This document shows, piece by piece, positions 3 to 21,386 of a DNA stretch of 64,000 nt. The stretch lies in the NCBI GenBank assembly GCA_963791165.1, contig CAWBRL010000017.1, positions 6,388 to 70,387 of the forward strand, written 5' to 3'. The notes below the pieces were generated by a model that saw nothing but the letters and a program-made list of their open reading frames with translations, was not told the DNA's origin and made no database searches. How positions within the stretch are numbered: position 1 is the first letter of the stretch; each line of letters begins with the position of its first letter. Position numbers and translations under genes: made by a program. The stretch is from an uncultured Alphaproteobacteria bacterium (lineage in GTDB: Bacteria; Pseudomonadota; Alphaproteobacteria; Rhizobiales; Xanthobacteraceae).

Positions 3-458
3 GGCGCCATCATCCGCACCCGGATTCCCTATGTCGGTTCGGTCGGCGCGCTCGACATGGTCAATTTCGGCGCGCCCGACAGCGTCCCCGAGCGCTACCG
101 CGGCCGGTTGCTTCATCAGCACAATCCGCAAGTCACCTTGATGCGGACGCTGCCCGACGAGAATGCCGCGATCGGCCGCTGGATCGGCGAACGCCTGAAT
201 CTGATGGAAGGCCTGGTGCGCTTCCTGCTGCCGGAGGGTGGGGTCTCGGCCCTCGACGAGGCGGGCAAGCCGTTCTTCGACACCGCGGCGCGCGAGGCGC
301 TGTTTGGCGCGCTGGAGGCGAGCGTGCGGCAGACCGCGTCGCGCCAGCTCGTTCGCGTTCCGCATCATATCAACAGCCCGGCGTTTGCGGCCGCGCTGGC
401 GCAGCATTTTCGCGCGCTGCAAGGCGCACGGCCGCGCGCCCGCGCCGCGGGCCGATAG
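3..458 (+). CDS. Tm-1-like ATP-binding domain protein (UPF0261), 5' end outside window
   Basis: Frame open from nt 3: [15 protein letters not shown]...[10 protein letters not shown]...[11 protein letters not shown]...[10 protein letters not shown], typical of the UPF0261 C-terminus. Confidence 0.85.
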
Positions 459-469
459 GGGATCACAGC

Positions 470-1304
470 ATGGCAGCGATCGATCGGCAGACGCTTCTTA
501 CCAGGTTTCACGACATGATCGCGCGTGGCGAACCGATCGTCGGCGGCGGCGCCGGCACCGGCCTGTCCGCCAAATGCGAGGAAGCCGGCGGTATCGACCT
601 GATCGTGATCTACAATTCCGGCCGCTTCCGGATGGCCGGGCGCGGTTCGCTGTCCGGCCTGATGCCGTATGGCGATGCCAATGCGATCGTGATGGAGATG
701 GCCGCCGAGGTGCTGCCGGTCGTGAAGCAAGACTCCGGTGCTGGCCGGCGTCTGCGCCACCGATCCGTTCCGCAGCATGGAGCGCTTTCTCGACGAGGTG
801 AAAGCCGCGGGGTTCTCCGGCGTACAGAACTTTCCCACGGTCGGACTGATCGACGGCAGCTTCCGCATCGGGCTGGAGGAAACCGGCATGTCCTACGCGC
901 TCGAAGTCGAGATGATCGCGTTGGCCGCCGCCAAGGGCCTGTTGACGACGCCCTATGTGTTCTCGGCCGACGATGCCGCGGCGATGGCGGGCGCGGGGGC
1001 TGACATCATCGTCTGCCATTTCGGGTTGACCGCCGGCGGCGCGATCGGCGCACGGACCGCACTGAAGCTCGAGGATGTTCCGGCCACCCTGGACGCCTGG
1101 GCGGCGACGGCACTCGCGGTGAAACCAGATGCGATCATCCTCGTGCATGGCGGTCCGGTGGCAGAACCTGCAGACGCCGAATTCGTCATCAAGAACTCGC
1201 GGCATTGCCACGGCTTCTACGGCGCTTCCTCGATGGAGCGGCTGCCGGTCGAAGTCGCGATCCGCGAGCAGACCCGGAAATTCAAGGCCATCAGCCGCGG
1301 CTGA
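470..1304 (+). CDS. Phosphoenolpyruvate-hydrolase-like TIM-barrel protein; +1 frameshift near 729
   Basis: [36 protein letters not shown], then PVLAGV...[13 protein letters not shown]...[13 protein letters not shown] in the next frame; removing one C in gtgaagCaagact restores VVKKTPVLAG. Confidence 0.88.
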
Positions 1305-1343: not shown

Positions 1344-4251
1344 ATGTCAGGCCAGCTGATCGGAGCGCTCATTCTCTGGCTGATTGTCGCGATCATCGTG
1401 ATCGCGATCGTCGTCTATCTGGTGAACTGGTTGTACCGGCGCTCGTCGAAGGAGGCGGCGTTTGTCCGTACCGGTGCTGCCGGCGAAAAAGTGGTGATCG
1501 ATTCCGGCGCTTTCGTGCTGCCGTTCATCCACGACATCACGCCGGTGAACATGAACGTGCTGCAGATGCGGGTGCATCGCGGCCAGGACGACGCCATCAT
1601 TACTCGCGACCGGATGCGGGTCGACATCGACGCCGACTTCTACGTCCGCGTCCGCGCCACCGCCGAGGCGGTTTCGCTCGCGGCCTCGACGCTCGGCCGG
1701 CGCACCATGCAGCCGGAGACGCTGCACGAGCTGTTGTCCGGCAAGTTCGTCTCGGCGATCCGCTCGGTCGCCTCCGAGATGACGATGGAGGACATGCATG
1801 AGCAGCGCGGGGTCTATCTGGCCAAAGTCAAGGAGGCCGCCGCCGAGGCGCTCGCCAAAAACGGGCTCGAACTGGAATCGGTGGCACTGACCAATCTCGA
1901 CCAGACCGACCTGCAATATTTCAACGCCTCGAACCGCTTCGATGCCGAAGGCCTGACCCATCTGATCGAGCAAATCGAAGGCCGGCGCAAGGCGCGCAAC
2001 GATATCGAGCAGGATTCGATGATCAAGATCCGCTCGCGCAATCTCGAAGCGGAGAAGCAGTCGCTCGAGATCGAGCGCGAGAGCGAGCTGGCGCGACTGG
2101 AGCAGCAGCGCGACGTCGAGGTGCGCCGCGCCGTGCAGCGCGCCGAAATCGCCCGCGAGCGTGCGATGCGCGACACCGAGGCCGAGCAGGCCCAGATCAA
2201 CGCGCGCGAGGAAATCGAGAAGTCGCGGATTGGCAATGAGCGCGCCATCAGCGAGGCGCGAATTGCCTCCGAGCGCGACGTCCGTCAGCGCGAGATCGAG
2301 CGCAGCCAGACCGTCGACCAGGCCGAGATCGCCGCGCGCGAGACCGTGGAAAAGGCGCGGATCGCCAACGACCAGTTGATCAAGGAGACCCGCATCGCCG
2401 CCGACCGCGAGATCCGCGAGCGCGAAATCGAGCAGCTGCGGGCGCTGCAGGCCGCCGAAATCGCCGCCCGCGAATCCACCGAGCGCGCCCGGATCGCGCA
2501 GGAAGCGTCCGTCAGCACGGACCGGATCGCCAACGAGCAGCGGATTTCGGGCCTCGACATCGCGAAGCGGCGTTCGATCGAGGAGGCCGACATCGCCGCG
2601 CGGCTCGCCACCGAAACCGCCGAAATCGCCCGCAACAGCGCCATCATCGCCAACCGCTTGGCTGCGGAGGAAAAGCGGCTGGCGCGGGAGATCGTCCGCG
2701 ACCGTACCGTCCAGCAGGAGATCCATCGCCGCAAAGGAACTGGTGGAGTCCGCCCGCATCGTCCAGGAGGAGCGGGTCCGCGCGCTGACCATTACCCGCA
2801 ACCAGGCGATCGATGAGGCCGAGATTGCCGCCCTGCATGCAGTGGAAGCGGCCCGGATCGCCAACGAGAAGGAAATCGCGGCGCATCGCATCCTCGCCGA
2901 GCAGGAAACCCGGTCGCAGGAGATCGCACGAACGAAGGCGCTGGAAGGCGCCGAGATTGCCGCCCGCGAGGCGACCGAGACCGCCCGGATCGCGCAGGAG
3001 CAAGCGGTTGCCACCTCGCGAATCGCCTCCGATCTCGAAATCCGCAACCTCGATATCAATCGCAACAAGGCGATCGAGACCGCCGAGATCAAGAAGCGGG
3101 ATGCGGTCGAGGTCAGCCGCATCGAGGCCGAGCTTGCGATCGACAAGGAGCGGATCGCGGCGTCGAAGAGCCGCGAGGTGCTGCAGATCGATCAGAAGAA
3201 GACCGTCGAGATCGCCGAGGAGGAGCGCGTCATCGCGACCTCTGCGCGGAAGATCGAGCGGGTCGATTCCGACCGTGCCGTGCGCGCAGCCGAGATCAAC
3301 GCGCGCCAGGAGATCGAGAAGGTCGACATCACGCGCGAGCGCGAATTGGAGGTGGCGCGGCTGGAGCGTCGCAAGGCGCTCGAGCAGCTCGATATCGCGC
3401 GCAACCAGGCACTGCAGGAATCCGAAATTGCGGCGCGCGAGGAAATCGAACGCGCGCGGATCGCCTCCGAACGCGGTCTCGACGAGGCCCGTGTCGGCCG
3501 CGACCTCGACCTGCGAAAGCTCGAGGTCGGTCGCGAGCGTGAGGTCGAGAGCGCGGTGATGGACAAGGCGATCGCGATCTTCGAGAAGTCGCTGCTGGAA
3601 TCCGCAGCCCAGGTGAAGGCGGAGATGGCGAAGGCCAAGGCGGTGGAGGCTGAGGAAATCGTCAAGACGGTGCGCGAAAGCGAGAACGCCAAGCGCCGTG
3701 CCACGGTCGAAGTCATGCTGGCAAGGAAGAACGCCGACGAGAAGCGAATCGAGGCCGAGGCCCATGCGATCCGCGCCGCGGTCGACGCCGAAGCGCAGAA
3801 GCTGCTCTACGAGGCCGAGAACGCGCTGACCGACGAGGCCCGCTACGGCCTGTTCCGGCGGCGGCTGCTGGACCGGATCGAGGGTATCGTCCGCGAAAGC
3901 GTCAAGCCGATGGAGAAGATCGAAGGCATCCGTATCCTGCATGTCGACGGGCTGGGCGGCATGGCCGGTAATGGCGGCGGCAGTTCGCGCACGCCGACCG
4001 ATGAGGTGATCGAGTTGGCGCTGCGCTACCGGGTGCAGGCGCCGCTGATCGATCAGGTGCTGAAGGAAATCGGGATCGAGGGTGGCAACCTTGCCAAGAT
4101 GGGCGGGTTGATGCGTGAGGCCAGCGATCTGCAACGGGTGGGTAAGGAAGCCCAGCCCCCGAGGCCGAAGGACGGGCCAGCCGCCACCGAGGCGGGTCCC
4201 GGCGAGCGCAAGCCGCCGGGCCGCGGCGACAAAGGCAAGGGCAGGGAGTAA
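1344..4251 (+). CDS. Extra-long flotillin/SPFH (YqiK-like) membrane protein, ~968 aa; +1 frameshift near 2720
   Basis: N-terminal TM helix, SPFH domain (FVRTG...ITRDRMRVD..ADFYVRV...GLELESVALT..DQT...FDAEGL), long coiled coil, YqiK-like C-terminus (IVRESVKPMEKIEGIRIL...ALRYRVQAPLID); GGGAG RBS. Confidence 0.85.
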
Positions 4252-4255: not shown

Positions 4256-4693
4256 ATGGCCCGCGTCTACGTATCCAGTGTCATCAATGCGCCGGCGGCC
4301 AAGGTCTGGGCGCGCGTGCGCGACTTCAACGGCCTGCCGAACTGGCATCCCGGCATCGCCGAGAGCCGGATCGAGAACGGCGAGCCGGCCGACAAGGTTG
4401 GCTGCGTCAGGGCGTTCGCGTTGCGCAATGGCGACCGGCTGCGCGAAAAGCTGCTCGGCCTGTCGGACTTCGACATGCTCTGCACTTACTCAATCCTGGA
4501 TTCGCCGATGCCGCTGACCAACTACGTCGCCTCACTGCGACTGACCCCGGTCACAGATCAAGATCGTACCTTCATCGAATGGAGCGCCGATTTCGACTGC
4601 GCGCCGGAACTGGAAGCGGAGCTGGTCAGCGGTGTCGGCGGCAATGTGTTCCAGACCGGGTTCGACGCGCTTAACCGCGCATTCGGAGCCTGA
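4256..4693 (+). CDS. SRPBCC (polyketide cyclase/START-like) family protein
   Basis: VSSVINAPAAKVWARVRDFNGLPNWHP...GCVRAF...LREKLL..SD...YSIL. Confidence 0.85.
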   Translation: MARVYVSSVINAPAAKVWARVRDFNGLPNWHPGIAESRIENGEPADKVGCVRAFALRNGDRLREKLLGLSDFDMLCTYSILDSPMPLTNYVASLRLTPVTDQDRTFIEWSADFDCAPELEAELVSGVGGNVFQTGFDALNRAFGA

Positions 4694-4696: not shown

Positions 4697-5140
4697 ATGC
4701 CGCGAGTGGTTCGCAGCACCATCATCGATGCGCCGGTCGAACGGCTGTGGGCGGTGCTGCGCGACTTCAATGGTCATGAATCCTGGCATCCGATTGTGGC
4801 CAAGAGCACGATCGAGCGCGGTTATCCCTCGGACAAGATCGGCTGCGTCCGCCGCTTCACGATGCAGGACGGCGCCGAATTGCGCGAGCAACTGCTGGCC
4901 CTGTCGGATCTGGAAATGACGTTCAGCTATTGCCTGCTGGAGACGCCGATTCCGCTGTTCAACTACGTCGCCCATGTCCGGCTGCTGCCGGTCACCGACG
5001 GCAATCGCAGCTTCTGGCATTGGGAGGGCCGGTTTACCACGCCGGCCGGGCGCGAGACGGAGCTCGCCGAGCTCGTCGGCAACGAAGTCTATTCAAACGG
5101 GATCGCGGCGGTCCGCCAGTTGCCCGAACTCGCAGATTAG
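4697..5140 (+). CDS. SRPBCC family protein, paralog of upstream gene
   Basis: STIIDAPVERLWAVLRDFNGHESWHP...DKIGCVRRF...LREQLLALSD. Confidence 0.85.
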   Translation: MPRVVRSTIIDAPVERLWAVLRDFNGHESWHPIVAKSTIERGYPSDKIGCVRRFTMQDGAELREQLLALSDLEMTFSYCLLETPIPLFNYVAHVRLLPVTDGNRSFWHWEGRFTTPAGRETELAELVGNEVYSNGIAAVRQLPELAD

Positions 5141-5148: not shown

Positions 5149-5973
5149 ATGCCCGTCAACGTACGCATCGTGCAGGGACTACAGGAAGCCGCTGGTATCC
5201 TCGCCAGCGATCGCGGCGCACAGTTGCTCGGCGGCGGCACGCTGCTGGTGCGCGCCATCAACGAGGGCACCATGACGGAGGGCACCTTGCTGCGGACGCT
5301 CGATCCGGTGCTGTTGGCGATGAACACCAGCGGTGCGCAGGTCGAACTCGGTGCCGGCGTCACGATGGCGATGGTGCTGGCGAACCGTGACCTGTCCTAT
5401 CTGCACGCACCGGCGCGCGGCATCGGCGGCCCCGCGGTGCGAACCACCGCGACCATCGGCGGCAATCTGTTCGCCGCCACGCCCTATGGCGATTTCACCA
5501 CCGCGCTGCTGGCGCTCGACGCTGTCGTCACGCTGCATGCCGGTTTCGGCGGCGCGCGGGTGATGCCGCTCGAGGAGATGCTGGCGAACCGGGCGCGGGG
5601 AGGGGTGGGGCTGGTCGCCTCGGTTGGCTTCAGCCGCCCGGCCGGCGCTGATGCATTTCGTTTCGTCAAGGTCGCGCGCGTGCGGCCCAAGGGCGTCTCG
5701 GTGCTCTCGATCGCAGCGCATCTGCCGCAGAACGGCGGACGGATCAGCGGCGCGCGGATCGCCTATGGCGCGATGGGGCCGGCGCCGCTGCGCGCCAAGG
5801 CGGTCGAGCGCGTGCTGGAGGGCCGCAGCCTGGACGCAGCCACCATTGCCGCCGCGAAGACCGCGGCGCTCGAGGGTACGCAGCCCGCGACCGATGCGAT
5901 CGCGTCAGAATGGTATCGCCGCGAAGTATTGCCTGTGCATCTCGGCCGGCTGCTTGCCGGCGAGACATCCTGA
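5149..5973 (+). CDS. Molybdenum hydroxylase FAD-binding subunit (XDH/CoxM family)
   Basis: LLGGGTLL, IGGPAVRTTATIGGNL, DFTTALLALDA, TDAIASEWYR motifs. Confidence 0.88.
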   Translation: MPVNVRIVQGLQEAAGILASDRGAQLLGGGTLLVRAINEGTMTEGTLLRTLDPVLLAMNTSGAQVELGAGVTMAMVLANRDLSYLHAPARGIGGPAVRTTATIGGNLFAATPYGDFTTALLALDAVVTLHAGFGGARVMPLEEMLANRARGGVGLVASVGFSRPAGADAFRFVKVARVRPKGVSVLSIAAHLPQNGGRISGARIAYGAMGPAPLRAKAVERVLEGRSLDAATIAAAKTAALEGTQPATDAIASEWYRREVLPVHLGRLLAGETS

Positions 5974-5984: not shown

Positions 5985-6467
<483 letters not shown>

Positions 6468-6477: not shown

Positions 6478-8137
6478 ATGCTGGAGTTTCGCAAGGATCT
6501 GTTCGCCGACGAGCGCGACGACAATCTCAACGTGATCGGCAAAGGCGAACAGCGCCAGGACATGCTGGGGCATGTCACAGGCCGCACCCGCTTTTTCGAT
6601 GATCACGGCTTTGACGGCCTGCTGCATCTGAAGGTCGTGCGCTCGCCGCATCATCACGCCCGGATCCGGAGCATCGACGTCTCCGCCGCAGAGCGCGCGC
6701 CAGGCGTGAAACGCGTGATCCGGGGGCAGGACGTCCCGGTCAACAAGAACACGCTGCTCAGCCTGATCGAATTCGGCAAGGACGACGAGCCGACGCTGGC
6801 CGTCGACAAAGTGCGCTACAAAGGGCGAGCCGATCGTCGCCATCATCGCCGACAGCGAGGCGGAAGCCATGGCCGCCGTCAATCTGGTTCGGGTCAGCTA
6901 TGATCCGCTGCCCACGGTGTTCGACGTGCAGGAGGCGCTGAAGCCGGGCGCGGTCGTCGTCAACGAGACCTATCCGGGAAACTATTTCGAGTATCACGAC
7001 AAATACGACCATCAGAAACTGCGCTTCGGCGATGTCGATGCGGCGTTCCGCACGGCGGATCACGTGATCGAGGAGCGCTACCAGATGTCGCCGATCGAGC
7101 ACGCCTCGACCGAGACCAACGGCACCATCGCCGCGCCCGAAACCAACAACCGCTACGTCGTGCATTCCTGCGCGCAAGGCCTGTTCTTCTCGCTAGGTAC
7201 CACCGCCAAGATCCTTGCGCTGGAGTCCAACCGGCTGCATTTCATCGGCGGCACCGTCGGCGGCGGCTTTGGCGGCAAGGTCGATTCGCTAACCGAGCCG
7301 CTGGCGGTGCTCGGCGCGATCCTCACCGGGCGACCGGTCCGCTATGTACTGGGACGCGAGGAGGAGATGCAGTTCGGCTCGCCGCGCGGGGCCGAGCGGC
7401 ACGTCATCAAGGACGGCGTGATGCGAGACGGCCGTATCGTCGCGCGGCAGATCACGTCCTATTTCGATGCCGGCGCCTACACGCGGCTGTCCAGCTACGG
7501 CGTGGTCAAATGTATCGCCCACATGCCGGGGCCTTACACGATCCCGAACGTGCGCGGCGATGCCTATTGCGTTTTCACCAACCGCGTGCCGGCCACTGCG
7601 ATGCGCGGCTTCGGCGTCACTGGCCTCGACTTCTCGATCGAGGTCCAGATGGACAAGCTGGCGCATCTGGTCGGCATCGACCCGATGGAATTCCGCATCC
7701 TCAACGCCTATCGCGACGGCGACATGAAGGCGCATCGCCGTGTCGCCCACAACACCGCGCTGATTGAATGCGTGCAGGTCGTGGCGGAGAAGGTGAACTG
7801 GCCGCTCGGCGAGACGGCGCGTCGCGCCTCGTCGCTGAGCGGCGGTGGCGGCGCGCGCGCGGCGATTCCGCCCACGGTGACCGATGAGAGCGGTCGGATC
7901 GGCCGGCCGGAGACGCGGCAGGCGCCGCCACAACTGACGCCGGGCGCGGCACCGCTGCCGGCTTATCAGCCGCAACCTGCCGTGACCGTCTATCAGCCGC
8001 CGCCGGCGCATCAGCCGGTGGCGCCGCCGCCGAACTTTCCGTCGCCGCGGGCTCCGACGCCCCCGGTTCCAATTCCGCCGGCGGCGCCCCAGCACGGTGC
8101 GGCGCGGTTCTCGTCGGTGTTCACACGGAGACGCTGA
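6478..8137 (+). CDS. Molybdopterin-binding subunit, N-terminal (large) part, with Pro-rich tail; +1 frameshift near 6820
   Basis: RSPHHHARIRSID, VRYKGEPIVA (restored by deleting one A), GGGFGGK, GAY, AMRGFG, DPMEFRILN. Confidence 0.88.
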
Positions 8138-8138: not shown

Positions 8139-9164
8139 ATGGCACGGCATCAGGGACGCGGAATGGCGTCCATCAACTACCCGATTGGCATGAATCTCGG
8201 CGGTGATCCCAGTCAGGCGCTGGTGCACGCCAATCCGGACGGCAAATTCACCGTGGCGCTGTCGGCGATCGATCTCGGGCAGGGCATGAAGCAGGTGAGC
8301 CGGCAGATCGCGGCAGAGACGCTGGGCGTCCCGATCGAGGACGTCTATGTCGACACCGCCGACAGCGACACCGGTCCGCATGACATGGGCTCGTTCGCCT
8401 CGCGCGGCACGCACCGCGTTGGCAACGCGGTGATCGTCGCGGCGAAGGAGGCGCGGGGCGTGCTGCTGGAGGCCGCTGCCGAGGAACTGGAGGTCAATGC
8501 CGATGACCTCGTCACCGACGGCAAGGGCAATATCCATGTCCGCGGCGCGGTGTCGAAATCGATCACCGTCAAGGCCGCATCGCAGGCGGCGCAGTTCAAG
8601 CAGGGCAAAACGATCTCCGGCCGCGGCATCTTTCTGATCCCGCTGTCCACGGTCAATCCGGAGACTGGCGAGATGTCGCCGGTCACCGCCTATGCCCATG
8701 CCTGCCTCGTCGTCGATCTGGAGGTCTGCGACGAAACCGGTGACGTCAAGGTCAACAAGCTCACCAGCGCCTATGAACTCGGTCGCGCGCTCAATCCGAA
8801 GATGGTCGAGCAGCAACTGGTCGGCGGCGCCTGGATGGGCATGAGCCACGCGCTCTACGAGACGCCGGAGCCGTATTATCCAACCCCCGAATACGGCGGG
8901 CGCGACTACAACGAATATCTGATGCCCGGCCCCGGCGACATCGCACCGCACGACATCACGGTGCTGGAACGACCGGCGCCGGACGGTCCGTTCGGTGCCA
9001 AGGGCCCCGGCGAAATGTGCGCCAATCCGGTGCTGCCGGCGGTCGCCAACGCGATCTACAACGCCATCGGCGTGCGGATCGACACGCTGCCGATTACGCC
9101 GGAAAAGATCCTGCGCGCGCTGAAGGCGCAGGGTGGCGCGCGGCCGCAAGTCCGGCGTGCATAG
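8139..9164 (+). CDS. Molybdopterin-binding subunit, C-terminal (medium) part
   Basis: GRGMASINYPIG, DLGQG, GSFASRGT, GRALNP..VEQQLVGG, GPFGAKGPGE (catalytic Glu), PITPEKIL. Confidence 0.9.
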   Translation: MARHQGRGMASINYPIGMNLGGDPSQALVHANPDGKFTVALSAIDLGQGMKQVSRQIAAETLGVPIEDVYVDTADSDTGPHDMGSFASRGTHRVGNAVIVAAKEARGVLLEAAAEELEVNADDLVTDGKGNIHVRGAVSKSITVKAASQAAQFKQGKTISGRGIFLIPLSTVNPETGEMSPVTAYAHACLVVDLEVCDETGDVKVNKLTSAYELGRALNPKMVEQQLVGGAWMGMSHALYETPEPYYPTPEYGGRDYNEYLMPGPGDIAPHDITVLERPAPDGPFGAKGPGEMCANPVLPAVANAIYNAIGVRIDTLPITPEKILRALKAQGGARPQVRRA

Positions 9165-9175: not shown

Positions 9176-10057
9176 ATGGCGGTGCGCGGAAGTGTTGGTG
9201 GGATCGATCGGCCGGAGAAACTGGCCGAGGCGTTGCGCGCGGCCTATTACCTAGCCGATGACGGCTTCGCGACAGCCGGCTATCTCGCGCTCGCGCTCGG
9301 CAAGCCGCTGCTGCTGGAAGGTGCGCCGGGTGTCGGCAAGACCGAGGCCGCCAAGGCGATCGCCGGGATCATGGGGCGGCAGCTGATCCGGCTGCAATGC
9401 TACGAGGGCATCGACGCCGCCGCCGCGCTGTACGAGTGGAATTACCCGCGCCAGATGCTGGCGATCCGTCAGGCCGGCGATGAACCGATCGACATCTATC
9501 GCGACGATTTCCTGATCGAGCGGCCGATGCTGGCGGCGCTGCGTCGCCCGGAATCGACCGTGCTGCTGATCGACGAAATCGACCGCTCCGATCCGGAATT
9601 CGAGGCGTTCCTGCTCGAATTCCTGTCAGATTTCTCGATCTCGATCCCGGAGCGCGGCACGCTGCGCGCGCATGAGCGCCCGGTGGTAATCCTGACTTCG
9701 AACCGCACCCGCGATCTGCACGAGGCGCTGCGGCGCCGCTGCGTCTATCACTACATCGCCTATCCGGATCCGGAGCGCGAGGCGCGGATCATCATGATGC
9801 GCTCGTCGGCCGTCGCCGAGGCCACCGCACGCGCGATCGTGACGGCGGTGGGGCGGCTGCGGCAGGAGCCGCTGACCAAGCCGCCCGGCGTCGCCGAAGC
9901 GATCGACTGGGCGGAGGCGGCGACCCTGCTGGCAAAAACCGGCGCACCGTGGCCGGACGCGTTCCGCCGCGCGATCGGCGTGGCGCTGAAGGACGAAGAG
10001 GACCTCGCCTTCATCGCGCCGCGGCTCGACGCCATCATCGCGGAGATCGCGGCATGA
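9176..10057 (+). CDS. MoxR-family AAA+ ATPase (CoxD-like)
   Basis: Walker A LEGAPGVGKT, RLQCYEGID, Walker B LLIDEIDR, TSNRTRDLHEALRRRC. Confidence 0.92.
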   Translation: MAVRGSVGGIDRPEKLAEALRAAYYLADDGFATAGYLALALGKPLLLEGAPGVGKTEAAKAIAGIMGRQLIRLQCYEGIDAAAALYEWNYPRQMLAIRQAGDEPIDIYRDDFLIERPMLAALRRPESTVLLIDEIDRSDPEFEAFLLEFLSDFSISIPERGTLRAHERPVVILTSNRTRDLHEALRRRCVYHYIAYPDPEREARIIMMRSSAVAEATARAIVTAVGRLRQEPLTKPPGVAEAIDWAEAATLLAKTGAPWPDAFRRAIGVALKDEEDLAFIAPRLDAIIAEIAA

Positions 10058-11172
10058 CGGTATCAGCTCTGCCGCGCGCGGCCCGGCCGCTGCTGGATTT
10101 CATCGCGCTGCTGCGCCGCAACAGCTTTTCGGTCGCGCCGGAACAGGGCCTGGCTTTTCTGCGCGCAATCGAACTGCTCGGTCCGCGCGATATCGAGGAC
10201 ATCCGCCGCGCCGGCGTTGCCACGCTGGCGCCGCCGTTCGAGCGGCAGCCCGATTTCGACATGCTATTCGATATGCATTTTCTCGGCCTTGCCGGCGTGC
10301 TGTCGGATCAGGTCGCCGAAAGCGACGAAGAGCTGGAAGTTCAGGACGATGGCGCCGGGTATGACGCGCCGCTGTCGGACGACATCAACGAAACCGGGCA
10401 GGCCGCGACTGCCACCGAGGCGCTTTCGCGGCGCGCACTCCGGTCGGAAGATGACAGCCGGGAACTGGCGCGATTCAGCCGGCACCTGCCGGCCCGGCTG
10501 CCGCGCCGCCGCGGCTATCGGATGCGCTCGGCAAAACGCGGCGGCGGCTTCGACTTGCAGCGCTCGCTGCGAGACTCCATCCGTACCGACGGCGAGGTGA
10601 TCCTGCTGCGCCGCCGCGAACGCCAATTGCGGCCACGCGCCATCCTGCTCCTGATCGACGTGTCGGGCTCGATGAAGGCGCGCTCCGACGCGCATCTGCG
10701 TTTTGCCCATGCGCTGGTCAACGCAGCACCCCGCGTCGAGGTGTTCACGTTCGGCACGCGGCTGACGCGGCTGACCCGTGCGCTGCGGCTGAAGAATCGC
10801 GAGCAGGCGCTTGCCGTCGCAGCCGACCTCGTCGCCGACTGGGATGGCGGCACGCGGATCGGCGATGCGCTGGCCGCCTTTCTCGCAGTGCCGCGCTTCG
10901 CCGGCTATGCTCGCGGCGCGTTGGTGCTGGTGTTGTCCGACGGGCTCGAGCGCGGCGATCCGGCGCAGATGATCCGCGCGGTCAGGCATCTCGCCGCGCG
11001 CGCCTGGCGGATCGACTGGCTGACGCCGCTTGCCGCTGCGGCCGATTATCGCCCGGAGACCGCGGCGCTGCGCGCGGTGCTGCCGATGCTCGACAGCGTC
11101 GCCAATGGCGCGACCACGGAGCGGCTCTGCCGGCACGTTCTCGATCTGTCACGACGGAGGGCTGCACAATGA
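10054..11172 (+). CDS. vWA-domain protein (CoxE-like)
   Basis: MIDAS motif DVSGSM, EVFTFGTRLTRLT, WDGGTRIG, SDGLERGD; ATGA overlap with the MoxR gene. Confidence 0.9.
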   Translation: MTVSALPRAARPLLDFIALLRRNSFSVAPEQGLAFLRAIELLGPRDIEDIRRAGVATLAPPFERQPDFDMLFDMHFLGLAGVLSDQVAESDEELEVQDDGAGYDAPLSDDINETGQAATATEALSRRALRSEDDSRELARFSRHLPARLPRRRGYRMRSAKRGGGFDLQRSLRDSIRTDGEVILLRRRERQLRPRAILLLIDVSGSMKARSDAHLRFAHALVNAAPRVEVFTFGTRLTRLTRALRLKNREQALAVAADLVADWDGGTRIGDALAAFLAVPRFAGYARGALVLVLSDGLERGDPAQMIRAVRHLAARAWRIDWLTPLAAAADYRPETAALRAVLPMLDSVANGATTERLCRHVLDLSRRRAAQ

Positions 11173-12068
11173 TCCGGCCTGCGCCGGGCTGCGTCGATGC
11201 CCATCATCACATCTGGCGGCAGCAGGATCTGCCCTGGCTGCTCGGGCCGATGCAGCCGCGGATCTTTGGACCCTACGAGCCGATCCGCCGCGACTACACC
11301 ATCGCGGAATATCTGGCGGATGTCGCCGCCGCCGGTGTCACGCGGTCGGTTTACGTGCAGGCGAACTGGGCGAAGGAGCGTTTCCTCGATGAGGTCTCCT
11401 ATGTCAGCAACGCCGCGCGGGAAACCGGCTGGCCGCATGCGATTGTCGCCTATGCGGATTTCACTGCGGAGGATGTGCGGCCTCAACTGGAGCAGTTGGC
11501 GGCATTCCCGTTGGTGCGGGGCGTCAGGATGCAGCTGCACTGGCACGACAATCCGCAATATCGCTTCGCATCCGCTCCGGATTTGGCGCGCGATCCCACG
11601 CTCCGGCGCAACATCGCGCGATTGAGCGAATATGGCTGGGCCTTCGATCTGCAGGTTTTCGCTCCGCAGATGGCTGGTGCGGCCGAGCTTGCCGATAGCT
11701 GTCCCGACGTCAACTTCGTCTTGCAGCACGCCGGCATGCTGGAGGATTTGTCGTCGGCCGGCCTTGAGGCCTGGTGCGCCGGTATGGCGTTGTTGGCGCG
11801 GCAGCCCAACGTCGTGGCGAAGTTATCCGGCCTCGGCACCTTCCTGCATCGCAACGACCCCGCGCATATCGGTTTCGTGGTCGGCGAAACCGTCCGGCTG
11901 TTCGGCGCCGGCCGCTGCATGTTCGGTTCGAATTTTCCGATCGAAAAACTCTGGACCCGCTACGAGGCGTTGTTCGATGCCTATCGCACGGCGACGCAGA
12001 CGCTTTCCATCACGGACCAGCAAGCGATCTTTCACGACACCGCCGCCGGCATCTACCGGCTGGCTTGA
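11169..12068 (+). CDS. Amidohydrolase_2 family protein (lactonase-like)
   Basis: VDAHHHIW, FVLQHAG, VAKLSG, RCMFGSNFP. Confidence 0.88.
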   Translation: MIRPAPGCVDAHHHIWRQQDLPWLLGPMQPRIFGPYEPIRRDYTIAEYLADVAAAGVTRSVYVQANWAKERFLDEVSYVSNAARETGWPHAIVAYADFTAEDVRPQLEQLAAFPLVRGVRMQLHWHDNPQYRFASAPDLARDPTLRRNIARLSEYGWAFDLQVFAPQMAGAAELADSCPDVNFVLQHAGMLEDLSSAGLEAWCAGMALLARQPNVVAKLSGLGTFLHRNDPAHIGFVVGETVRLFGAGRCMFGSNFPIEKLWTRYEALFDAYRTATQTLSITDQQAIFHDTAAGIYRLA

Positions 12069-12109
12069 TTTTCAGAAAACAACACGATCCAACGAGGGAA
12101 AACAATCAC

Positions 12110-12958
12110 ATGGCGCTCGAAATCAAGATCCTGGACTACGGCGACATCGAACTGGAATCCAGCTTCCTCGTGCTGGGACGCGATTGCGGGCGCACCAGGC
12201 GGGTCTACACTTACGGATTCCTGATCCTCGGAGGTCCGTGGCCGATGGTGGTCGATACCGGCTATCGCCACAATCAGATCATGGAAAGCTTGGGCATGCG
12301 CGGGCTGCAGCACCATGAGAACATGATCGAAAACCAGCTCGCCAGGCATGGCGTGCGGATGGGCGACGTGCGCTACGTCATGCACACCCATCTCCACATC
12401 GACCACGCCGGCAAGGACGAGTTGTTCCCGATGAATACGACGGTGCTGCTGAACCGGCGCGAACTGGAATACTCCGTATCAGGCCTGATGCATCCGCAAT
12501 ATCCGGCGCCTGACATCAAGCACCTGATCGACCGGCTGCACACCCGCCACGCGCTGCGGCTGGAAGATCTCGAACTGTCCGGCCCGATCGAGGTCTGCCC
12601 CGGTGTCACCGTCGATGCGGCGGGCGCTCACACCGAGGGCTCGATGAACGTCCATGTCGAGACCGCCGAGGGCCGCGCCACCATATGCGGCGACGTGATC
12701 TACGATTTCAACGACCAGATCGTGAATCCCTTCCACGAACTGCATCACAACGAGCCCCGCACCACCGGCAATCATGGCAACACCAAGCGCGAGGAGAAGG
12801 CGGCGATCAAGCGGCTGCTTTCCGGTTCGCGCTTCCTGCTGCCGGTGCATGACAAGCCCGCCAAGATCGAGCACGGCCAGGTCGTCGGGCGACTCGACAT
12901 GGCGGTGCCGGGGCCGATCGTGCAATCGCTGCCGTCACGCAATTGGTTCGCAGCGTGA
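12110..12958 (+). CDS. Metallo-beta-lactamase-fold hydrolase (AHL-lactonase/4-pyridoxolactonase-like)
   Basis: VVDTG, HTHLHIDHAG (HxHxDH), GAHTEGS, CGD, PVHD; GAGGG RBS. Confidence 0.85.
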   Translation: MALEIKILDYGDIELESSFLVLGRDCGRTRRVYTYGFLILGGPWPMVVDTGYRHNQIMESLGMRGLQHHENMIENQLARHGVRMGDVRYVMHTHLHIDHAGKDELFPMNTTVLLNRRELEYSVSGLMHPQYPAPDIKHLIDRLHTRHALRLEDLELSGPIEVCPGVTVDAAGAHTEGSMNVHVETAEGRATICGDVIYDFNDQIVNPFHELHHNEPRTTGNHGNTKREEKAAIKRLLSGSRFLLPVHDKPAKIEHGQVVGRLDMAVPGPIVQSLPSRNWFAA

Positions 12959-12980
12959 GCGGCGGCTTCGGAGACCAGCG

Positions 12981-14588
12981 ATGACCACGCATATCGCGCT
13001 GCGGCCGTCCTTTGCCGAACTGATCGACCTGTGGGCGCCGGTGCGGCAGGCCGGCACCGGATTTCAGTTCACGGAAGGTCCGGTCTGGCACCCGAAGGCG
13101 CATGATCTTCTGTTCTCCGACATGCCGGACGACGTGCGCCGCCGTCTTGATGGGCAGGGCATTCGCGAGGCGATGCGTCCGGCCAACAAGTGCAACGGCA
13201 TGACCTATGATGCCGGGCTGAACCTGATCGTCTGCGAGCACGCCACCTCCACGCTCGTGCGCGAACGCCCCGACGGCCGGCGCGAGATCTTGGCGTCGCA
13301 TTTCGACGGGCTGGAGCTGAATTCGCCGAACGACGTCTGCGTCAAGTCCGATGGCGCGATCTATTTTTCCGACCCGTGGTACGGCCGGATGCCGGTCTAT
13401 GGCGTCGAACGGCCGCGCCAGCTCGGATTCCAGGGCGTCTATCGCGTACCGCCCCGCGGTGGCCCGCCGGAATTGCTGGTCGACCGCTATCTGTTCGATC
13501 AACCGAACGGGCTGTGCTTTTCGCCGGACGAGCAGCGGTTCTACGTCAACGATACCGTCAAGCATCTGATCCGTGTGTTCGACGTCGATGCCGCCGGCGG
13601 CCTCCGCAACGGCCGTGTGTTCGCCTCCAACATCGTCTCGGCCGCCGAGCCCGGTGTGCCTGATGGCATGAAATGCGACGCGCTCGGTAATGTCTGGGTT
13701 TCGGCGCCGGGCGGAATCTGGGTCTATGCGCCGGACGGCAGACTAGTCGGCAAGCTGCGCATTCCCGAGTTGGTCAGTAACCTGACCTGGGGCGGGCCGG
13801 ATTGGCGCACGCTCTACATCACCGCGACGCATTCGGTTTATGCGGTGCCGGTGAAGGTCGGACCACGCAACGAGCCTTATATGCGCGCCAGCCAGAACGG
13901 GCCGGCCGCGGCCCGGCCGGCACCGGCTCCGGTAGCTCCGCTGGCCACTGTCAATCGGTCCGCAGCCCAGCTCGCCGAGCCGGGCTACGCGGTCGATCCG
14001 TCGCGCTGCGCGCTGATCATTCAGGACATGCAAAACGACGTGGTGATGGACGGCGGCGCCTTTGCTTCCTCCGGCTCGCCAGCGCATTGCCGCGAACAGA
14101 ACGCCATCGCCAACGCAAAGCGGCTCGCGGAGGCCGCGCGTGCCCGTGGCGTCCTGGTGATTCACGTCTGGTTCGTGGTGGAGCCGGGCGCGCCCGGCGT
14201 GACGGCGAATGCACCGCTGTTCGAGGGGTTGATCGACGCGAAAGCACTGGTGCGCGGCACCTGGGGAGCTGCGCCGGTGCCGGGACTGGAGCCGCACGCC
14301 GGCGACCAGGTGGTGGAGAAGATGCGGATGAGCGCCTGGGAGGGTACGAGGCTGGAGGCGATGCTGAAATCGGCCGGCCGCGATTTCGTCATCGTCACTG
14401 GCGCCTGGACTAACATGTCGATCGAACACACCGCCCGCACTGGCGCGGACAAGGGGTTCTACATGGTCGTGCCGGAGGATTGCTGCTCGACCATGAACGC
14501 CGAATGGCACATCGCCGCGGTGAACTACGCGATCCAGAACGTGGCGATGGTGACCCGCGCCGACGACCTGATCGCAGCCTTGTCCTGA
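12981..14588 (+). CDS. SMP-30/gluconolactonase domain fused to isochorismatase-family (cysteine hydrolase) domain
   Basis: FTEGPVW, NSPND, PNGLCFSPD, PDGMKCD; Ala/Pro linker; then ALIIQDMQND, EKMRMSAW, GAWTNMSIEHTAR. Confidence 0.87.
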   Translation: MTTHIALRPSFAELIDLWAPVRQAGTGFQFTEGPVWHPKAHDLLFSDMPDDVRRRLDGQGIREAMRPANKCNGMTYDAGLNLIVCEHATSTLVRERPDGRREILASHFDGLELNSPNDVCVKSDGAIYFSDPWYGRMPVYGVERPRQLGFQGVYRVPPRGGPPELLVDRYLFDQPNGLCFSPDEQRFYVNDTVKHLIRVFDVDAAGGLRNGRVFASNIVSAAEPGVPDGMKCDALGNVWVSAPGGIWVYAPDGRLVGKLRIPELVSNLTWGGPDWRTLYITATHSVYAVPVKVGPRNEPYMRASQNGPAAARPAPAPVAPLATVNRSAAQLAEPGYAVDPSRCALIIQDMQNDVVMDGGAFASSGSPAHCREQNAIANAKRLAEAARARGVLVIHVWFVVEPGAPGVTANAPLFEGLIDAKALVRGTWGAAPVPGLEPHAGDQVVEKMRMSAWEGTRLEAMLKSAGRDFVIVTGAWTNMSIEHTARTGADKGFYMVVPEDCCSTMNAEWHIAAVNYAIQNVAMVTRADDLIAALS

Positions 14589-15096: not shown

Positions 15097-16443
15097 ATGC
15101 GCATGAACACGATGAAGGCGCTTCTGGTTGCAGGCGGTGCCCTTGGCGCCGCGCTCGGTGTCGGAGCGGCGACCACGCCCGCGCACGCGCAGGGCAAAAC
15201 GATCACGCTGTGCTGGGCCGCATGGGATCCGGCCAACGCGCTGGTCGAACTGTCGAAGGACTTCACCGCCAAGAGCGGGATCGGCATGAAGTTCGAGTTC
15301 GTGCCCTGGACCAACTATGCCGATCGCTTCCTGAACGAACTCAACTCGCGCGGTTCGCTGTGCGATCTCATCATCGGCGACTCGCAGTGGATCGGCGGCG
15401 CCGCCGAGAACGGCCAGTACGTCAAGCTGAACGACTTCTTCACGAAGGAAGGGATCAGCATGGACGACTACATGCCGGCCACCGTGGTCGGTTATTCACA
15501 GTGGCCAAAGAATACGCCGAATTACTGGGCGTTGCCGGCAATGGGCGACGCGGTGGGCTGGACCTATCGCAAGGACTGGTTCGCGCGCCCCGACGTGCAA
15601 AAGGATTTCAAGGCCAAATACGGCCGCGATCTCGCCGTGCCGCAGACGCTCGATGAACTCCGCGACATCGCGAAATTCTTCCAGGGCCGCGAGATCGACG
15701 GCAAAAAGGTCTACGGCGCCTCGATCTATACCGAGCGCGGCTCGGAAGGCATCACCATGGGCGTCTCGAACTATCTCTACGACTACGGCTTCAAGTACCA
15801 GGATCCCAACAAGCCCTATGCGATGGACGGGTTCGTCAACTCGCCGGGCGCCGTCAAGGGGCTCGAGGCCTACAAGGAACTCTACAAGTGCTGCACGCCT
15901 CCCGGTGCCTCCAACTCCTACATGTCGGAAGGTCTTGATGCCTTCAAATCCGGCCAGGTGGCGCTGCAGATGAACTTCTTCGCCTTCTTCCCGGGTCTCT
16001 ACAAGGATCCGAATGTCGGTGGCGACAAGATCGGCTTCTTCTCCAATCCCGCCGCCACCACCCAGGCCACCCAGCTCGGCGGGCAGGGCATCTCCGTGGT
16101 TTCCTATTCCAAGAACCAGGGCGAAGCGCTGCAATACATCAAGTGGTTCTCCGGTGGCGAGGTGCAGAAGAAGTGGTGGGCGCTGGGCGGCTATTCCTGC
16201 GCCAAGTCCGTGCTGAACGATCCGGGCTTCCCGGACAGCGCCCCCTTCGCCAAGGAGTTCCTGAAGTCAATGGGCATGGTGGTCGACTTCTGGGCCGAGC
16301 CCTCCTACGCGCAGCTCCTGCAAGCCGAACAGAAGCGCGTGCATGACTACGTGGTCGCTGACAAGGGCACCGCGCAGGAAGCGCTCGACGGGCTGGTGAA
16401 AGATTGGAAGGCCATCTTCAAGGAAGAGGGCAAGAAGTTCTAG
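15097..16443 (+). CDS. Sugar/polyol ABC transporter substrate-binding protein
   Basis: Signal peptide (..AHA-Q), CUT1-type binding-protein length and sequence, GGAGG RBS. Confidence 0.9.
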   Translation: MRMNTMKALLVAGGALGAALGVGAATTPAHAQGKTITLCWAAWDPANALVELSKDFTAKSGIGMKFEFVPWTNYADRFLNELNSRGSLCDLIIGDSQWIGGAAENGQYVKLNDFFTKEGISMDDYMPATVVGYSQWPKNTPNYWALPAMGDAVGWTYRKDWFARPDVQKDFKAKYGRDLAVPQTLDELRDIAKFFQGREIDGKKVYGASIYTERGSEGITMGVSNYLYDYGFKYQDPNKPYAMDGFVNSPGAVKGLEAYKELYKCCTPPGASNSYMSEGLDAFKSGQVALQMNFFAFFPGLYKDPNVGGDKIGFFSNPAATTQATQLGGQGISVVSYSKNQGEALQYIKWFSGGEVQKKWWALGGYSCAKSVLNDPGFPDSAPFAKEFLKSMGMVVDFWAEPSYAQLLQAEQKRVHDYVVADKGTAQEALDGLVKDWKAIFKEEGKKF

Positions 16444-16450
16444 GATAGCG

Positions 16451-16481
16451 GCCTGGAGCGCGGTTCGTCAGCGCTCCAGGC
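16451..16481 (+). terminator. Intercistronic stem-loop after the binding-protein gene
   Basis: GCCTGGAGCGC-N9-GCGCTCCAGGC, perfect 11-bp stem. Confidence 0.6.
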
Positions 16482-16553
16482 TATTCCTTTCGGACAAACC
16501 CGGACCTTTCTCCGAAGCCGGCCATCGCAGTGCATCAGGACCAGCCCCACGCC

Positions 16554-17513
16554 ATGAATGATTTGAGTGCCCCATCGCGGATCACCTACGGCGCTGTTCG
16601 GGTCCAGCCGGTGGTGGTGCGCCGCATTCGGGGGCTGTCCGACAAGGCTCTTGCGTGGCTCTTCATCACCCCGACGATGGTGCTGCTGCTGGCGATCAAC
16701 ATCTTCCCGCTGGTCTGGACGATCTATCTGTCGTTCACCAACTACCGGGCCAACCGGGCCAATGCACCGGTGAAATGGCTGGGGATCGACTGGTACCAGA
16801 CGATCCTGACCGATCCTGACATCTGGGCGGCGATGCAGGTGACAGCGCATTTCGTGTTCTGGACCGTCGTCATCGAGACCGTGCTCGGATTTGGCCTCGC
16901 CTTCCTGATCGACAAGAAATTCCGCGGCCACGGCGTCTGGACCACGATCATCCTGCTGCCGATGATGCTTTCGCCGGCCGTCGTCGGCAATTTCTGGACG
17001 TTCCTCTATCAGCCGCAGATCGGCCTCTTCAACTATGTGGTCGCCTTCCTTACCGGCCGCCCCGCATCGTCGTTCCAGATGCTGGGCGACGTGACGCTCA
17101 GTCCCTGGGCGATTGTCATCGTCGACGCCTGGATGTGGACGCCCTATGTGATGCTGATCTGCCTTGCCGGCCTGCGGTCGATCCCGGATTTCATCTATGA
17201 GGCGGCGGAAGTCGACCGCGCCTCGAAATGGCGGCAGTTCTGGTCGATCACGCTGCCGATGGCGCTGCCGTTCATCATGCTCGCGGTGCTGTTCCGCGGC
17301 ATCGAGAACTTCAAGATGTTCGACATGGTCAACCTGCTCACCGGGGGCGGGCCGGGGTCGACCACGGAGGTTGCCTCGATCACGCTCAAGCGCGCGGCGT
17401 TCGAGAGCTGGCGGACCGGTTATTCCTCGGCCTTCGCGATTATCTTGTTCGTGACAGTGTTCGGTCTCGCCAACATCTATGTAAAGGCGCTGAACCGGGT
17501 GAAAAGCCGATGA
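16554..17513 (+). CDS. Carbohydrate ABC transporter permease
   Basis: Multiple TM segments, EAA loop YEAAEVDRASKWRQFWSITLP; start could be 16530. Confidence 0.9.
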   Translation: MNDLSAPSRITYGAVRVQPVVVRRIRGLSDKALAWLFITPTMVLLLAINIFPLVWTIYLSFTNYRANRANAPVKWLGIDWYQTILTDPDIWAAMQVTAHFVFWTVVIETVLGFGLAFLIDKKFRGHGVWTTIILLPMMLSPAVVGNFWTFLYQPQIGLFNYVVAFLTGRPASSFQMLGDVTLSPWAIVIVDAWMWTPYVMLICLAGLRSIPDFIYEAAEVDRASKWRQFWSITLPMALPFIMLAVLFRGIENFKMFDMVNLLTGGGPGSTTEVASITLKRAAFESWRTGYSSAFAIILFVTVFGLANIYVKALNRVKSR

Positions 17514-18463
17514 GCCAGACCACCACAGCCCATTCCGTCGTCGAACCCTCGTCCGGTACCAGGCGATTGGCGGGTTCGCTCGTAGTGCTCTATGCCGTGA
17601 TCACCATGATCCCGCTGGTCTGGATCGTCCTCACCTCGTTCAAGTCGCCGGACGATGCGATCTCCTATCCGCCCAAAATCGTCTTTACGCCGTCGCTGGA
17701 AGGTTTCTGCAATCTCTTCACCACGCGCTCGCGCCAGACGCCGGATTTCATTCGCTCGCTCGGACCGTCGCAGGGGCTTTGCGACGAAATTGCGCGCAGT
17801 CGCAATATGGTCGTCGCTGGACCGTCGAATTATGTGCCGCGTTTCATCAATTCCGTGATCATAGCCTTTGGCTCCACCGTGCTCGCGGTCGCCCTGGGCA
17901 CATTGTCGGCCTACGGGTTCTCGCGGTTCCGCGTGCCCTTGAAGGACGATTTGCTGTTCTTCATCCTGTCGACACGGATGATGCCGCCGATCGCGGTCGC
18001 GATCCCGATCTATCTGATGTACCGCACCATCGGACTGTCGGACACAAGGCTCGGCATGATCCTGCTCTACACCTCGGTGAACGTCTCGCTCGCTGTTTGG
18101 CTGCTGAAAGGTTTCATCGACGAGATCCCGCGCGAGTACGAGGAAGCGGCCATGATCGACGGCTATACGCGATTTCAGGCCTTCGTGAAGGTGGTGCTGC
18201 CGCAGGCAACGACGGGAATCGCGGCAACGGCGATCTTCTGCCTGATCTTCGCCTGGAACGAATACGCTTTCGCGGTGCTCCTGACCTCCGGGAACGCGCA
18301 GACGGCGCCGCCCTTCATTCCGATCATCATCGGGGAGGGCGGGCAGGACTGGCCCGCGGTAGCCGCCGGCACGACGCTGTTTCTGGTGCCGATCGTCGTG
18401 TTCACGGTGCTGTTGCGCAAACATCTCTTGCGCGGCATCACCTTTGGAGCCGTTCGCAAATGA
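17510..18463 (+). CDS. Carbohydrate ABC transporter permease
   Basis: EAA loop EEAAMIDGYTRFQAF, FAWNEY. Confidence 0.9.
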   Translation: MSQTTTAHSVVEPSSGTRRLAGSLVVLYAVITMIPLVWIVLTSFKSPDDAISYPPKIVFTPSLEGFCNLFTTRSRQTPDFIRSLGPSQGLCDEIARSRNMVVAGPSNYVPRFINSVIIAFGSTVLAVALGTLSAYGFSRFRVPLKDDLLFFILSTRMMPPIAVAIPIYLMYRTIGLSDTRLGMILLYTSVNVSLAVWLLKGFIDEIPREYEEAAMIDGYTRFQAFVKVVLPQATTGIAATAIFCLIFAWNEYAFAVLLTSGNAQTAPPFIPIIIGEGGQDWPAVAAGTTLFLVPIVVFTVLLRKHLLRGITFGAVRK

Positions 18464-18672
18464 GCCTCGATGCAAACTCCTCCATGCAGGCGCGCGGCTT
18501 AGCGGACAGGGTTCTGCGACGCGGTCCGTTGGAAGCCATCGCGACGGCGATCATCGCCGCGGGCGTCATCATGCTGATGCAGCCGTTTTTCCTTACGCTG
18601 TATTCCTGGTCGTTCGCGACCACGCTGTTCGGCACCGTGATGTTCATCATTGTCTCGAAGGTCAGGGAGTAG
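18460..18672 (+). CDS. 70-aa two-TM membrane protein inside the ABC operon
   Basis: ATGA overlap with the permease, two hydrophobic segments, ends 5 nt before the ATPase start. Confidence 0.65.
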   Translation: MSLDANSSMQARGLADRVLRRGPLEAIATAIIAAGVIMLMQPFFLTLYSWSFATTLFGTVMFIIVSKVRE

Positions 18673-18677
18673 GGCGG

Positions 18678-20775: not shown

Positions 20776-21386
20776 CACTCAATCGGGAAGCCAGGGAAAA
20801 ACTGGTGCGGGCGCTTGCAGAATTGGTGATCTCGCACGCCGAAGAACTGACCAGCCTGGACCAGGCGATCGGCGACGGCGATCACGGATTGAACATGAAG
20901 CGGGGTTTTGAGGCTGTGCTCGCGACGCTGCCCGGTCTTGCTGACAAATCATTGCCGGAGATGCTGAAAGCGATTGGAATGACTCTGGTGATGAAGGTCG
21001 GTGGTGCCTCCGGGCCGTTGGTCGGCACCTTCTTCATGGAACTCGGCAAGGCGCTTCCGGAGGAGCCGGCGCGCGCCGATCTCGTCGCGGCGGCGGACAA
21101 GGCGATCGAAGCGGTCAAGTCCCGCGGGCGTTCGGATGCGGGGCAGAAAACCCTGCTCGATGTTCTGGTGCCGGTGCAGGCCGTATTTGCGGGTGGTGGC
21201 AATGCCAGCGCGATTGCGGCCGAGGCGGCGCAGGCCGCCGACCGCACGACGCCGATGCTTGCGACCCGCGGCCGAGCGTCCTTCCTCGGTGAAAGATCCA
21301 TCGGTCACATGGACCCGGGCTCGCGCTCGGCGTCTCTCCTGATCAGCGCCGCCGTTGCGGCGCTGGAATTCGAGGCAACCTCATGA
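20772..21386 (+). CDS. dhaL: Dihydroxyacetone kinase ADP-binding subunit
   Basis: LDQAIGDGDHGLNM, GGASGPL, KTLLDVL, GRASFLGERSIGHMDPG. Confidence 0.93.
   Translation: MTLNREAREKLVRALAELVISHAEELTSLDQAIGDGDHGLNMKRGFEAVLATLPGLADKSLPEMLKAIGMTLVMKVGGASGPLVGTFFMELGKALPEEPARADLVAAADKAIEAVKSRGRSDAGQKTLLDVLVPVQAVFAGGGNASAIAAEAAQAADRTTPMLATRGRASFLGERSIGHMDPGSRSASLLISAAVAALEFEATS

Follow-up and report, generated by a model that had tools for sequence, protein, structure and literature searches.

The window examined here is a stretch of 64,000 nucleotides from an uncultured Alphaproteobacteria bacterium of the family Xanthobacteraceae (contig CAWBRL010000017.1, forward-strand positions 6,388 to 70,387). 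Near its start lies the gene for a giant flotillin, followed by genes for two SRPBCC proteins and for a molybdenum (Mo) hydroxylase of the xanthine oxidase family, the large subunit of which is encoded as two halves, MoA and MoB (Table 1). The region 1344-4251 is confirmed, from the domains in its translation, to encode one YqiK-type (SPFH2b) flotillin. It has the traits of this type, namely an SPFH domain after a hydrophobic helix, a long helical middle rich in Glu, Ala and Arg, and a Flot domain, after which comes a variable low-complexity tail. The SPFH head also matches human flotillin-1 (E 8e-8). The full-length flotillin has no sequence match in the PDB at E 0.01.

Table 1. Features of the giant flotillin cluster (window positions).
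Feature	Position	Strand	Basis or remark
LivF-type ABC ATPase end, fused to UPF0261 domain	3..458	+	
PF09370 PEP-hydrolase-like TIM barrel; relative of Mll9387, PDB 2p10	470..1304	+	Split by +1 base ~728-731
Giant SPFH2b (YqiK-type) flotillin gene	1344..4251	+	968 residues read through; intact homologs exist
N-terminal hydrophobic helix, residues 3-34, likely membrane anchor	1350..1445	+	Sequence; helix in model of homolog L038
SPFH / Band 7 domain, residues 37-195	1452..1928	+	PF01145 E 3e-19, 70 bits (cut-off 23.6)
First hendecad block, ~32 units of one register, residues 285-636, position a Ile, 44-residue super-period	2196..3252	+	
Extra base splitting the flotillin frame	2722	+	Comparison with close genomes and metagenome contigs; most likely assembly error
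Second hendecad block, 8-9 units, after 3-residue register shift	3295..3591	+	
Flot C-terminal domain, likely cap region	3721..4077	+	PF15975 E 1e-34, 119 bits (cut-off 27)
SRPBCC protein 1 (PF10604)	4256..4693	+	
SRPBCC protein 2 (PF10604)	4697..5140	+	Fused to MDR dehydrogenase in Mo-less cluster versions
FAD subunit, xanthine-oxidase-family Mo hydroxylase	5149-5973	+	
2Fe-2S subunit, xanthine-oxidase-family Mo hydroxylase	5985-6467	+	
MoA, Mo large subunit, first half	6478..8137	+	Split by +1 base near 6820
MoA Pro-rich linker and conserved C-terminal motif, candidate docking tag	7850..8134	+	
MoA motif HGAARFSSVFTRRR	8093-8134	+	
MoB, Mo large subunit, second half	8139..9164	+	
MoxR-type AAA ATPase and CoxE-like vWA protein, likely maturation chaperone pair	9176..11172	+	
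Amidohydrolase_2, metallo-lactamase-fold lactonase, gluconolactonase-isochorismatase fusion	11169..14588	+	

The flotillin gene and its reading frame

In the window, the flotillin is divided between two frames, with the SPFH head in the open reading frame (ORF) 1344-2816 and the Flot tail in the ORF 2743-4251. Three close genomes lack three single bases that the window has, one at 2722, one at ~728-731 and one at 6820. All of these fall within genes, and the latter two interrupt the TIM-barrel gene and the gene of the Mo large subunit, respectively. A metagenome contig with 92% identity, which starts at 1938, is without the extra bases at 2722 and 6820. One base is absent at 2720-2722 in contigs from five of eight public runs, and in a run contig that covers 2690-2915 the missing base is the only difference. 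The other three runs have no indel listed at these positions, and one of them has a contig ending at 2719. These comparisons bear out the original prediction that removal of one base near 2720 restores the frame. The read-through product has 968 residues, the same length as an intact homolog with 95% identity (locus L038). Judging from the aligned sequences, the extra base at 2722 almost certainly arose as an error of assembly.

It is very improbable that the flotillin gene and its operon are genuinely broken in this strain. In favor of real damage, there are three frameshifts inside 7 kb, and four of the five housekeeping genes found in the assembly are whole (dnaE, gyrA, secA and alaS; rpoB and rpoC were not found there). 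On the other hand, each of the three is a single added base, stop codons and other decay are absent, near-identical contigs of other runs do not have the extra bases, and the essential gene valS is likewise broken in this assembly, into several short open frames. A codon-model scan, which gives rough values, finds 4.3 frameshift-like junctions per 100 kb, compared to 1.9 in 22 control loci. The family-level finding would hold even if the break were real. Intact long homologs are common, which disposes of the possibility, raised in the original prediction, of a real frameshift in a protein with no full-length relatives. Contigs from RNA runs cover the flotillin gene piecewise, and contigs of this type cannot show transcription. 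A promoter and terminator scan gave a result at chance level.

The hendecad wall and its variation in length

The middle of the protein is built from 11-residue units (hendecads). Its self-similarity, relative to 200 shuffles, has z scores of 16 at a lag of 44 residues, 12.5 at a lag of 11 and 12 at a lag of 33. The z score at a lag of 7 is ~0, and by this measure the segment is not a classical heptad coiled coil. Three short paralogs reach z scores of 3-4 at best. In 77 intact homologs, position a is Ile in 91% of the units, position g is Val, Ile, Leu or Thr, small residues prevail at positions b, f and j, and charged ones at positions d, e, h and k. When a helix with one hydrophobic face was compared to one with two, the harmonics 11/4 and 11/2 dominated, with the hydrophobic positions a and g ~130° apart, a pattern that would suit either. 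There is no proline in the 646 wall residues. Tandem repeats at the DNA level are nearly erased. The hendecads recognized at the outset are real and number ~40 in all (about 32, then 8-9). They do not keep the exact register then assigned to them, as three extra residues at 648-650 shift it.

A model of the intact L038 monomer, calculated with AlphaFold2 (AF2; 50-row alignment), is helical over residues 204-415, 443-606 and 641-827, and its top fold matches in the PDB are flotillins. Estimated from the sequences, the wall segment has about three times the length of the human flotillin wall.

Intact giant homologs have 828-1264 residues. The span between two fixed anchors was compared among 114 distinct giant sequences and takes 28 values, from 528 to 935. 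It is 0 mod 11 in 103 of the sequences and 8 mod 11 in another 10, and the last sequence is damaged and off-register. The spans of 113 of the 114 thus change by whole 11-residue steps, in two registers. Close relatives differ by a single 11-residue or a single 44-residue block. The short orthologs (spans of 283 and 404) are also 8 mod 11. The gain over the short orthologs amounts to 377 residues (anchor span of 660 versus 283); a large gain had been foreseen, and the earlier figure of ~400 extra helical residues is corrected accordingly.

A tree of 61 head domains, from which L125 was left out because it lacks an anchor, places the giant forms in a single clade (98/79), whose sister is a clade of 685-residue proteins. 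Length climbs along this tree, from ~560 residues to 685-770 in flotillins of clusters without the Mo enzyme and to 830 and more in those with it. None of 106 complete Mo-linked flotillins is below 828 residues. Relatives of 1720-4910 residues were not found, which is weak evidence. Two apparent fusions to SRPBCC or TIM domains (P0004 and P0009) look like frameshift read-throughs on single contigs and were not counted.

Linkage to the Mo hydroxylase and the MoA tail

The genes of the cluster are in the order AraC, livH, livM, livG, livF-UPF0261, PF09370 TIM barrel, flotillin and two SRPBCC genes, followed by those for the FAD subunit, the 2Fe-2S subunit, the two Mo half-subunits, AAA, vWA, the amidohydrolase, the lactonase and the gluconolactonase-isochorismatase fusion. 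The first four are upstream on the contig, beyond the window. Among the entries listed for 92 giant-type loci, this order is retained in nearly all, to the extent of their contigs. The two SRPBCC genes, and not those of the Mo enzyme, come directly after the flotillin gene in each orthologous locus examined. As predicted, there is no YqiJ/NfeD-like partner next to the window flotillin, and PF21001 was not found in a search of this 86% complete genome.

The giant gene and the MoB ortholog occur in the same 12 of 150 genomes of the family, and both are absent in the other 138. For the reverse comparison, loci were picked by MoB alone (40 of 85 MoB matches in 400 order-level genomes, and three plasmid-collection records). 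Where MoB identity is at least 72%, the giant gene is in the cluster in 30 of 30 loci, being adjacent in 29 and in an inverted module in one. The predicted linkage of long homologs to this Mo-hydroxylase operon is thus conserved. Locus L161 was considered as an exception and rejected, since its giant gene sits in an inverted module. The close MoB orthologs that mark the cluster make up a part of the 85 matches, and the cluster is present in the culturable genera Bradyrhizobium, Bosea and Xanthobacter. A phage search with MoA returned distant matches only. The same split four-subunit Mo enzyme is found, at 57-62% identity, in a haloarchaeon (L182) and an actinomycete (L183), where it is untagged (see below) and has no flotillin in the fetched stretch.

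The tail of MoA sets the linked enzymes apart. All 43 linked loci displayed have a Pro-rich linker of 34-170 residues (median ~100) followed by R[FY]SS[VI]xGxRRR. Variants of this tag motif are found in some linked loci, and the form in L142 is degenerate. The RFSS codons vary synonymously and the linker varies freely. The RRR is kept with CGN codons alone in two loci. Among 115 loci with a complete MoA end, 101 have flotillin and tag, 12 have neither, and two resolve to having both. The RFSS..G.RRR tag is then present in 103 of 103 flotillin-linked loci versus 0 of 12 unlinked orthologs, a restriction like that of a cargo peptide, within one clade. Locus L037 was considered as an untagged exception and rejected, as its tag lies in a shifted frame. 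In a further set of 80 metagenome loci, chosen by similarity to the window MoA, 75 of the 76 complete MoA ends are tagged, and the flotillin is present in all 42 loci long enough to check. The restriction of the tag to flotillin-linked MoA, as seen in these sequences, would lend indirect support to a physical link between the two proteins. A complex prediction with the 36-residue MoA tail and both SRPBCC proteins gave a score of 0.00, with controls that were not folded, and counts neither way.

Clusters without the Mo enzyme provide a comparison. Three of four checked genomes with an unlinked MoB carry a 733-737-residue flotillin ortholog elsewhere, in such a cluster. Mo-less clusters keep the importer, UPF0261, usually the TIM gene, a flotillin of 560-770 residues and SRPBCC-1, and in them SRPBCC-2 is joined to an MDR dehydrogenase via a Pro/Ala linker that resembles the one in MoA. 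By analogy, the MoA tag is best read as a non-covalent counterpart of this fusion, which would recruit the Mo enzyme to the assembly.

Alternatively, the flotillin may serve only the module of importer, UPF0261/TIM and SRPBCC proteins, its lengthening being a tolerated repeat expansion, and the MoA tail may bind something else, for example the AAA/vWA chaperone or the enzyme itself. The upstream module does accompany the Mo-less orthologs, the two modules are mutually inverted in one genome, and the correlation is carried by one clade. However, many unlinked enzymes have AAA/vWA genes and a split large subunit, yet no tail, and short Mo-linked flotillins are absent (0/106 below 828 residues). 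Moreover, in three Mo-linked loci (L165, L172 and L181) importer or TIM genes were not found beside the flotillin, and the flotillin, both SRPBCC genes and the tag are kept. We consider this explanation unlikely.

The SRPBCC proteins could also be CoxG-like quinone shuttles, with the flotillin as a sheltered conduit for electrons from the Mo enzyme to the membrane. CoxG, a member of the SRPBCC superfamily, extracts menaquinone for the Mo-containing carbon monoxide dehydrogenase (10.1101/2024.01.09.574806), and an SRPBCC gene also adjoins unlinked Mo enzymes (L143, L144, L182 and L184). This role is improbable, as both SRPBCC proteins match PF10604 and PF03364 only, not the CoxG family, and are retained in Mo-less clusters.

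The LivF-UPF0261 fusion is found in almost all clusters (for example L116:4584-6845, which ends at window position 458), and would put the UPF0261 domain, presumably Tm-1-like, on the importer. Loss of the periplasmic binding protein from the giant clusters was considered and ruled out, as it is present in 74 of 102 Mo-type loci. The closest solved chains to MoB are the medium subunit of nicotinate dehydrogenase (3hrd_B) and 4-hydroxybenzoyl-CoA reductase, which loosely points to an aromatic or N-heterocyclic acid as substrate. Matches of the lactonase and the amidohydrolase to solved enzymes are weak. At 12981-14588, the gluconolactonase domain is joined to the isochorismatase domain via a short Pro/Ala linker. 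Further downstream (15097-22091), and outside the conserved cluster as far as checked, are a sugar-type ABC importer and genes for dihydroxyacetone kinase subunit L, a PTS EIIA-like subunit and an HPr-like protein.

A possible assembly and its relation to known systems

Human flotillin forms a closed, right-handed barrel of 44 helices, with a 186-residue wall that is 22 nm high, and HflK/C encloses a dedicated membrane client, FtsH (PMC11260169). We tentatively favor, from the sequences, a tall, membrane-anchored flotillin barrel that may hold the neighboring Mo hydroxylase via the end peptide of MoA. One gene supplies the predicted membrane helix, the SPFH head, the long Pro-free wall and the Flot tail. 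By analogy with flotillin-1/2 and HflK/C, the subunits would form a ring with their helices side by side. Eleven residues make three helical turns, so growth by whole units would keep the contact stripes in register. As arithmetic only, ~590 wall residues correspond to 88 nm of helix, and with a tilt like that of the human protein, ~590-620 wall residues, compared to 186 for 22 nm, would give a height of ~60 nm. The gene order suggests that the barrel is placed above the co-encoded Liv-type importer or next to it, and that the two SRPBCC proteins are its dedicated partners and take the place of NfeD. The correlation of tag and flotillin suggests that the Mo enzyme is recruited by the RFSS..G.RRR motif to SRPBCC-2 or to the wall. 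An imported substrate, probably an N-heterocycle or a lactone, would then be oxidized and hydrolyzed locally.

The same proteins could instead make an open scaffold (a tube, a partial ring or a long tether) that gathers tagged enzymes at the membrane with no enclosure. Height varies freely among relatives, the L038 model breaks at two places, one of them at the register shift, and the long, flexible linkers of the enzyme suit binding to a surface. On the other hand, conservation is strong in the Flot tail, the part that shuts the narrow end of the human flotillin cage, and the flotillin structure that has been solved is that of a closed barrel (PMC11260169). An open scaffold appears less probable than a barrel, though slightly more probable than service to the importer alone.

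A separate giant SPFH lineage of 804-958 residues (L136-L141, also L195 and L196) has a 29-residue repeat (lags of 29 and 58), lies apart on the head-domain tree, and follows hydantoinase A/B genes in six of six loci (from ORF size and order, Pfam-confirmed in two). Its gene precedes that of an ABC ATPase. Related flotillins of 554-680 residues follow a rhodopsin-like gene in ABC-transporter clusters; this gene is annotated in L119 and L120, which also contain an AttM-type lactonase, and was judged by a look at the sequence in L191 and L198. The short flotillin gene of L029 has an isochorismatase gene on one side and, on the other, that of a periplasmic binding protein of a Liv-type importer, and a YqiJ gene was not seen. 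As read from these neighborhoods, NfeD-less flotillin genes recur in clusters for uptake and breakdown. One genome with the giant cluster contains in addition a second long flotillin (L187:8399-11170; 874 residues, 52% head identity), which has other neighbors. The flotillin head matches 228 Escherichia plasmid records. On a conjugative plasmid of E. coli, a YqiJ-like and flotillin pair (L185:1773-4114) is found in the transfer region, flanked by traC and pilI.

A wider proposal would be a new type of metabolic compartment, a vault-sized (~60 nm), membrane-anchored barrel of 11-residue modules that stands over its importer and is loaded with the Mo hydroxylase by a cargo peptide, with the second lineage having arrived independently at 29-residue modules and hydantoinases. 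We regard it as possible but doubtful. If true, SPFH cages would also serve as metabolic compartments whose height can be tuned, and engineering could make use of an addressable protein container bound to the membrane. For the question of what bacterial flotillins enclose, the cluster offers a candidate for the client and one for the docking peptide, together with a natural series of lengths (560, 685-770 and 830-1264 residues).

Several observations weigh against a tall barrel loaded with the Mo hydroxylase. The giant length, the Mo enzyme and the tag all map to one clade, so that their correlation may reflect a single event, and some loci may be one genome fetched twice. Loci with MoB at 57-71% identity have no flotillin in the fetched stretch (0/13). 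The enzyme-pathway link of the original prediction is partly supported, at the level of the cluster; it does not extend to these diverged enzymes, and the genes that immediately follow the flotillin are those of the SRPBCC proteins. The 12 intact unlinked MoA orthologs end directly after the core. The tag ends in the Arg codons AGG AGG in 37-38 of 46 loci, and these two codons double as ribosome-binding site for the gene that follows, so part of the motif conservation has another cause. No other ORF ending in the tag motif was found in the loci or the genome. The AF2 monomer of L038 is weak (predicted local distance difference test score 61, predicted template modeling score 0.23), with breaks at 416-442 and 607-640. 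The gene set is the same at spans from 528 to 935, which speaks against a height that is precisely measured. A normal cage is 22 x 32 nm in size. The Mo hydroxylase dimer probably fits such a cage, so cargo size alone needs no extra height. The cage, the oligomer and the binding of the tag are inferred from genes and models.

Size and the absence of NfeD are already known from a 2009 study, which lists five 'gigant SPFH2b w/o NfeD' proteins, from B. japonicum (NP_770020), Bradyrhizobium BTAi1, Sagittula, R. etli and Delftia (Hinderhofer et al. 2009; PMC2636767). Like the window protein, they have 800-1000 residues, an expanded coiled coil and no NfeD partner. The available parts of that account do not mention the 11-residue units, the enzyme cluster, the SRPBCC partners or the enzyme tag (PMC2636767). 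NP_770020 is most likely a member of the window family, matched by gene order around bll3369-bll3386 only. In B. diazoefficiens, a nasT mutant shows a joint rise of bll3383-3386, bll3376, bll3377 and bll3369 (PMC6759348); from the gene order, these genes are taken to belong to the matching cluster. The hendecad build, the cluster and the tag were not found in the open-access literature, the search being confined to it, with subscription journals and bioRxiv supplements outside. Martinez-Goikoetxea and Lupas reportedly published a survey of hendecad coiled-coil families in 2023, which may include the giant flotillin family.

YqiK-type flotillins (~560 residues) share the pair of PF01145 and PF15975 with the giant protein, but they come with YqiJ/NfeD. 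In the HflK/C-FtsH complex the client is a protease, in contrast to the cytoplasmic redox enzyme and importer proposed as clients here. In the FArhodopsin-flotillin clusters, a related flotillin is likewise co-transcribed with dedicated neighbors in a transport cluster, but it has ~560-660 residues, a rhodopsin partner and no Mo enzyme (10.1101/2023.01.04.522823).

The encapsulin cargo-loading and microcompartment encapsulation peptides are short, conserved terminal motifs on flexible linkers, known only from enzymes co-encoded with the shell. Their shells are unrelated and their motifs different, whereas the giant flotillin is predicted to be membrane-anchored and the MoA tag is a candidate docking peptide. 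A close structural parallel is the human flotillin-1/2 cage (PDB 9bq2 and 9l3g), which has in common with the giant protein the SPFH head, the fold match, a long, charged, non-heptad wall helix and a C-terminal cap region. The human wall has 186 residues compared to ~600 in the giant protein, and the human cage is a lipid-anchored 44-mer of two proteins, whereas one gene encodes the giant flotillin, which has a membrane helix and strict units of 11/44 residues.

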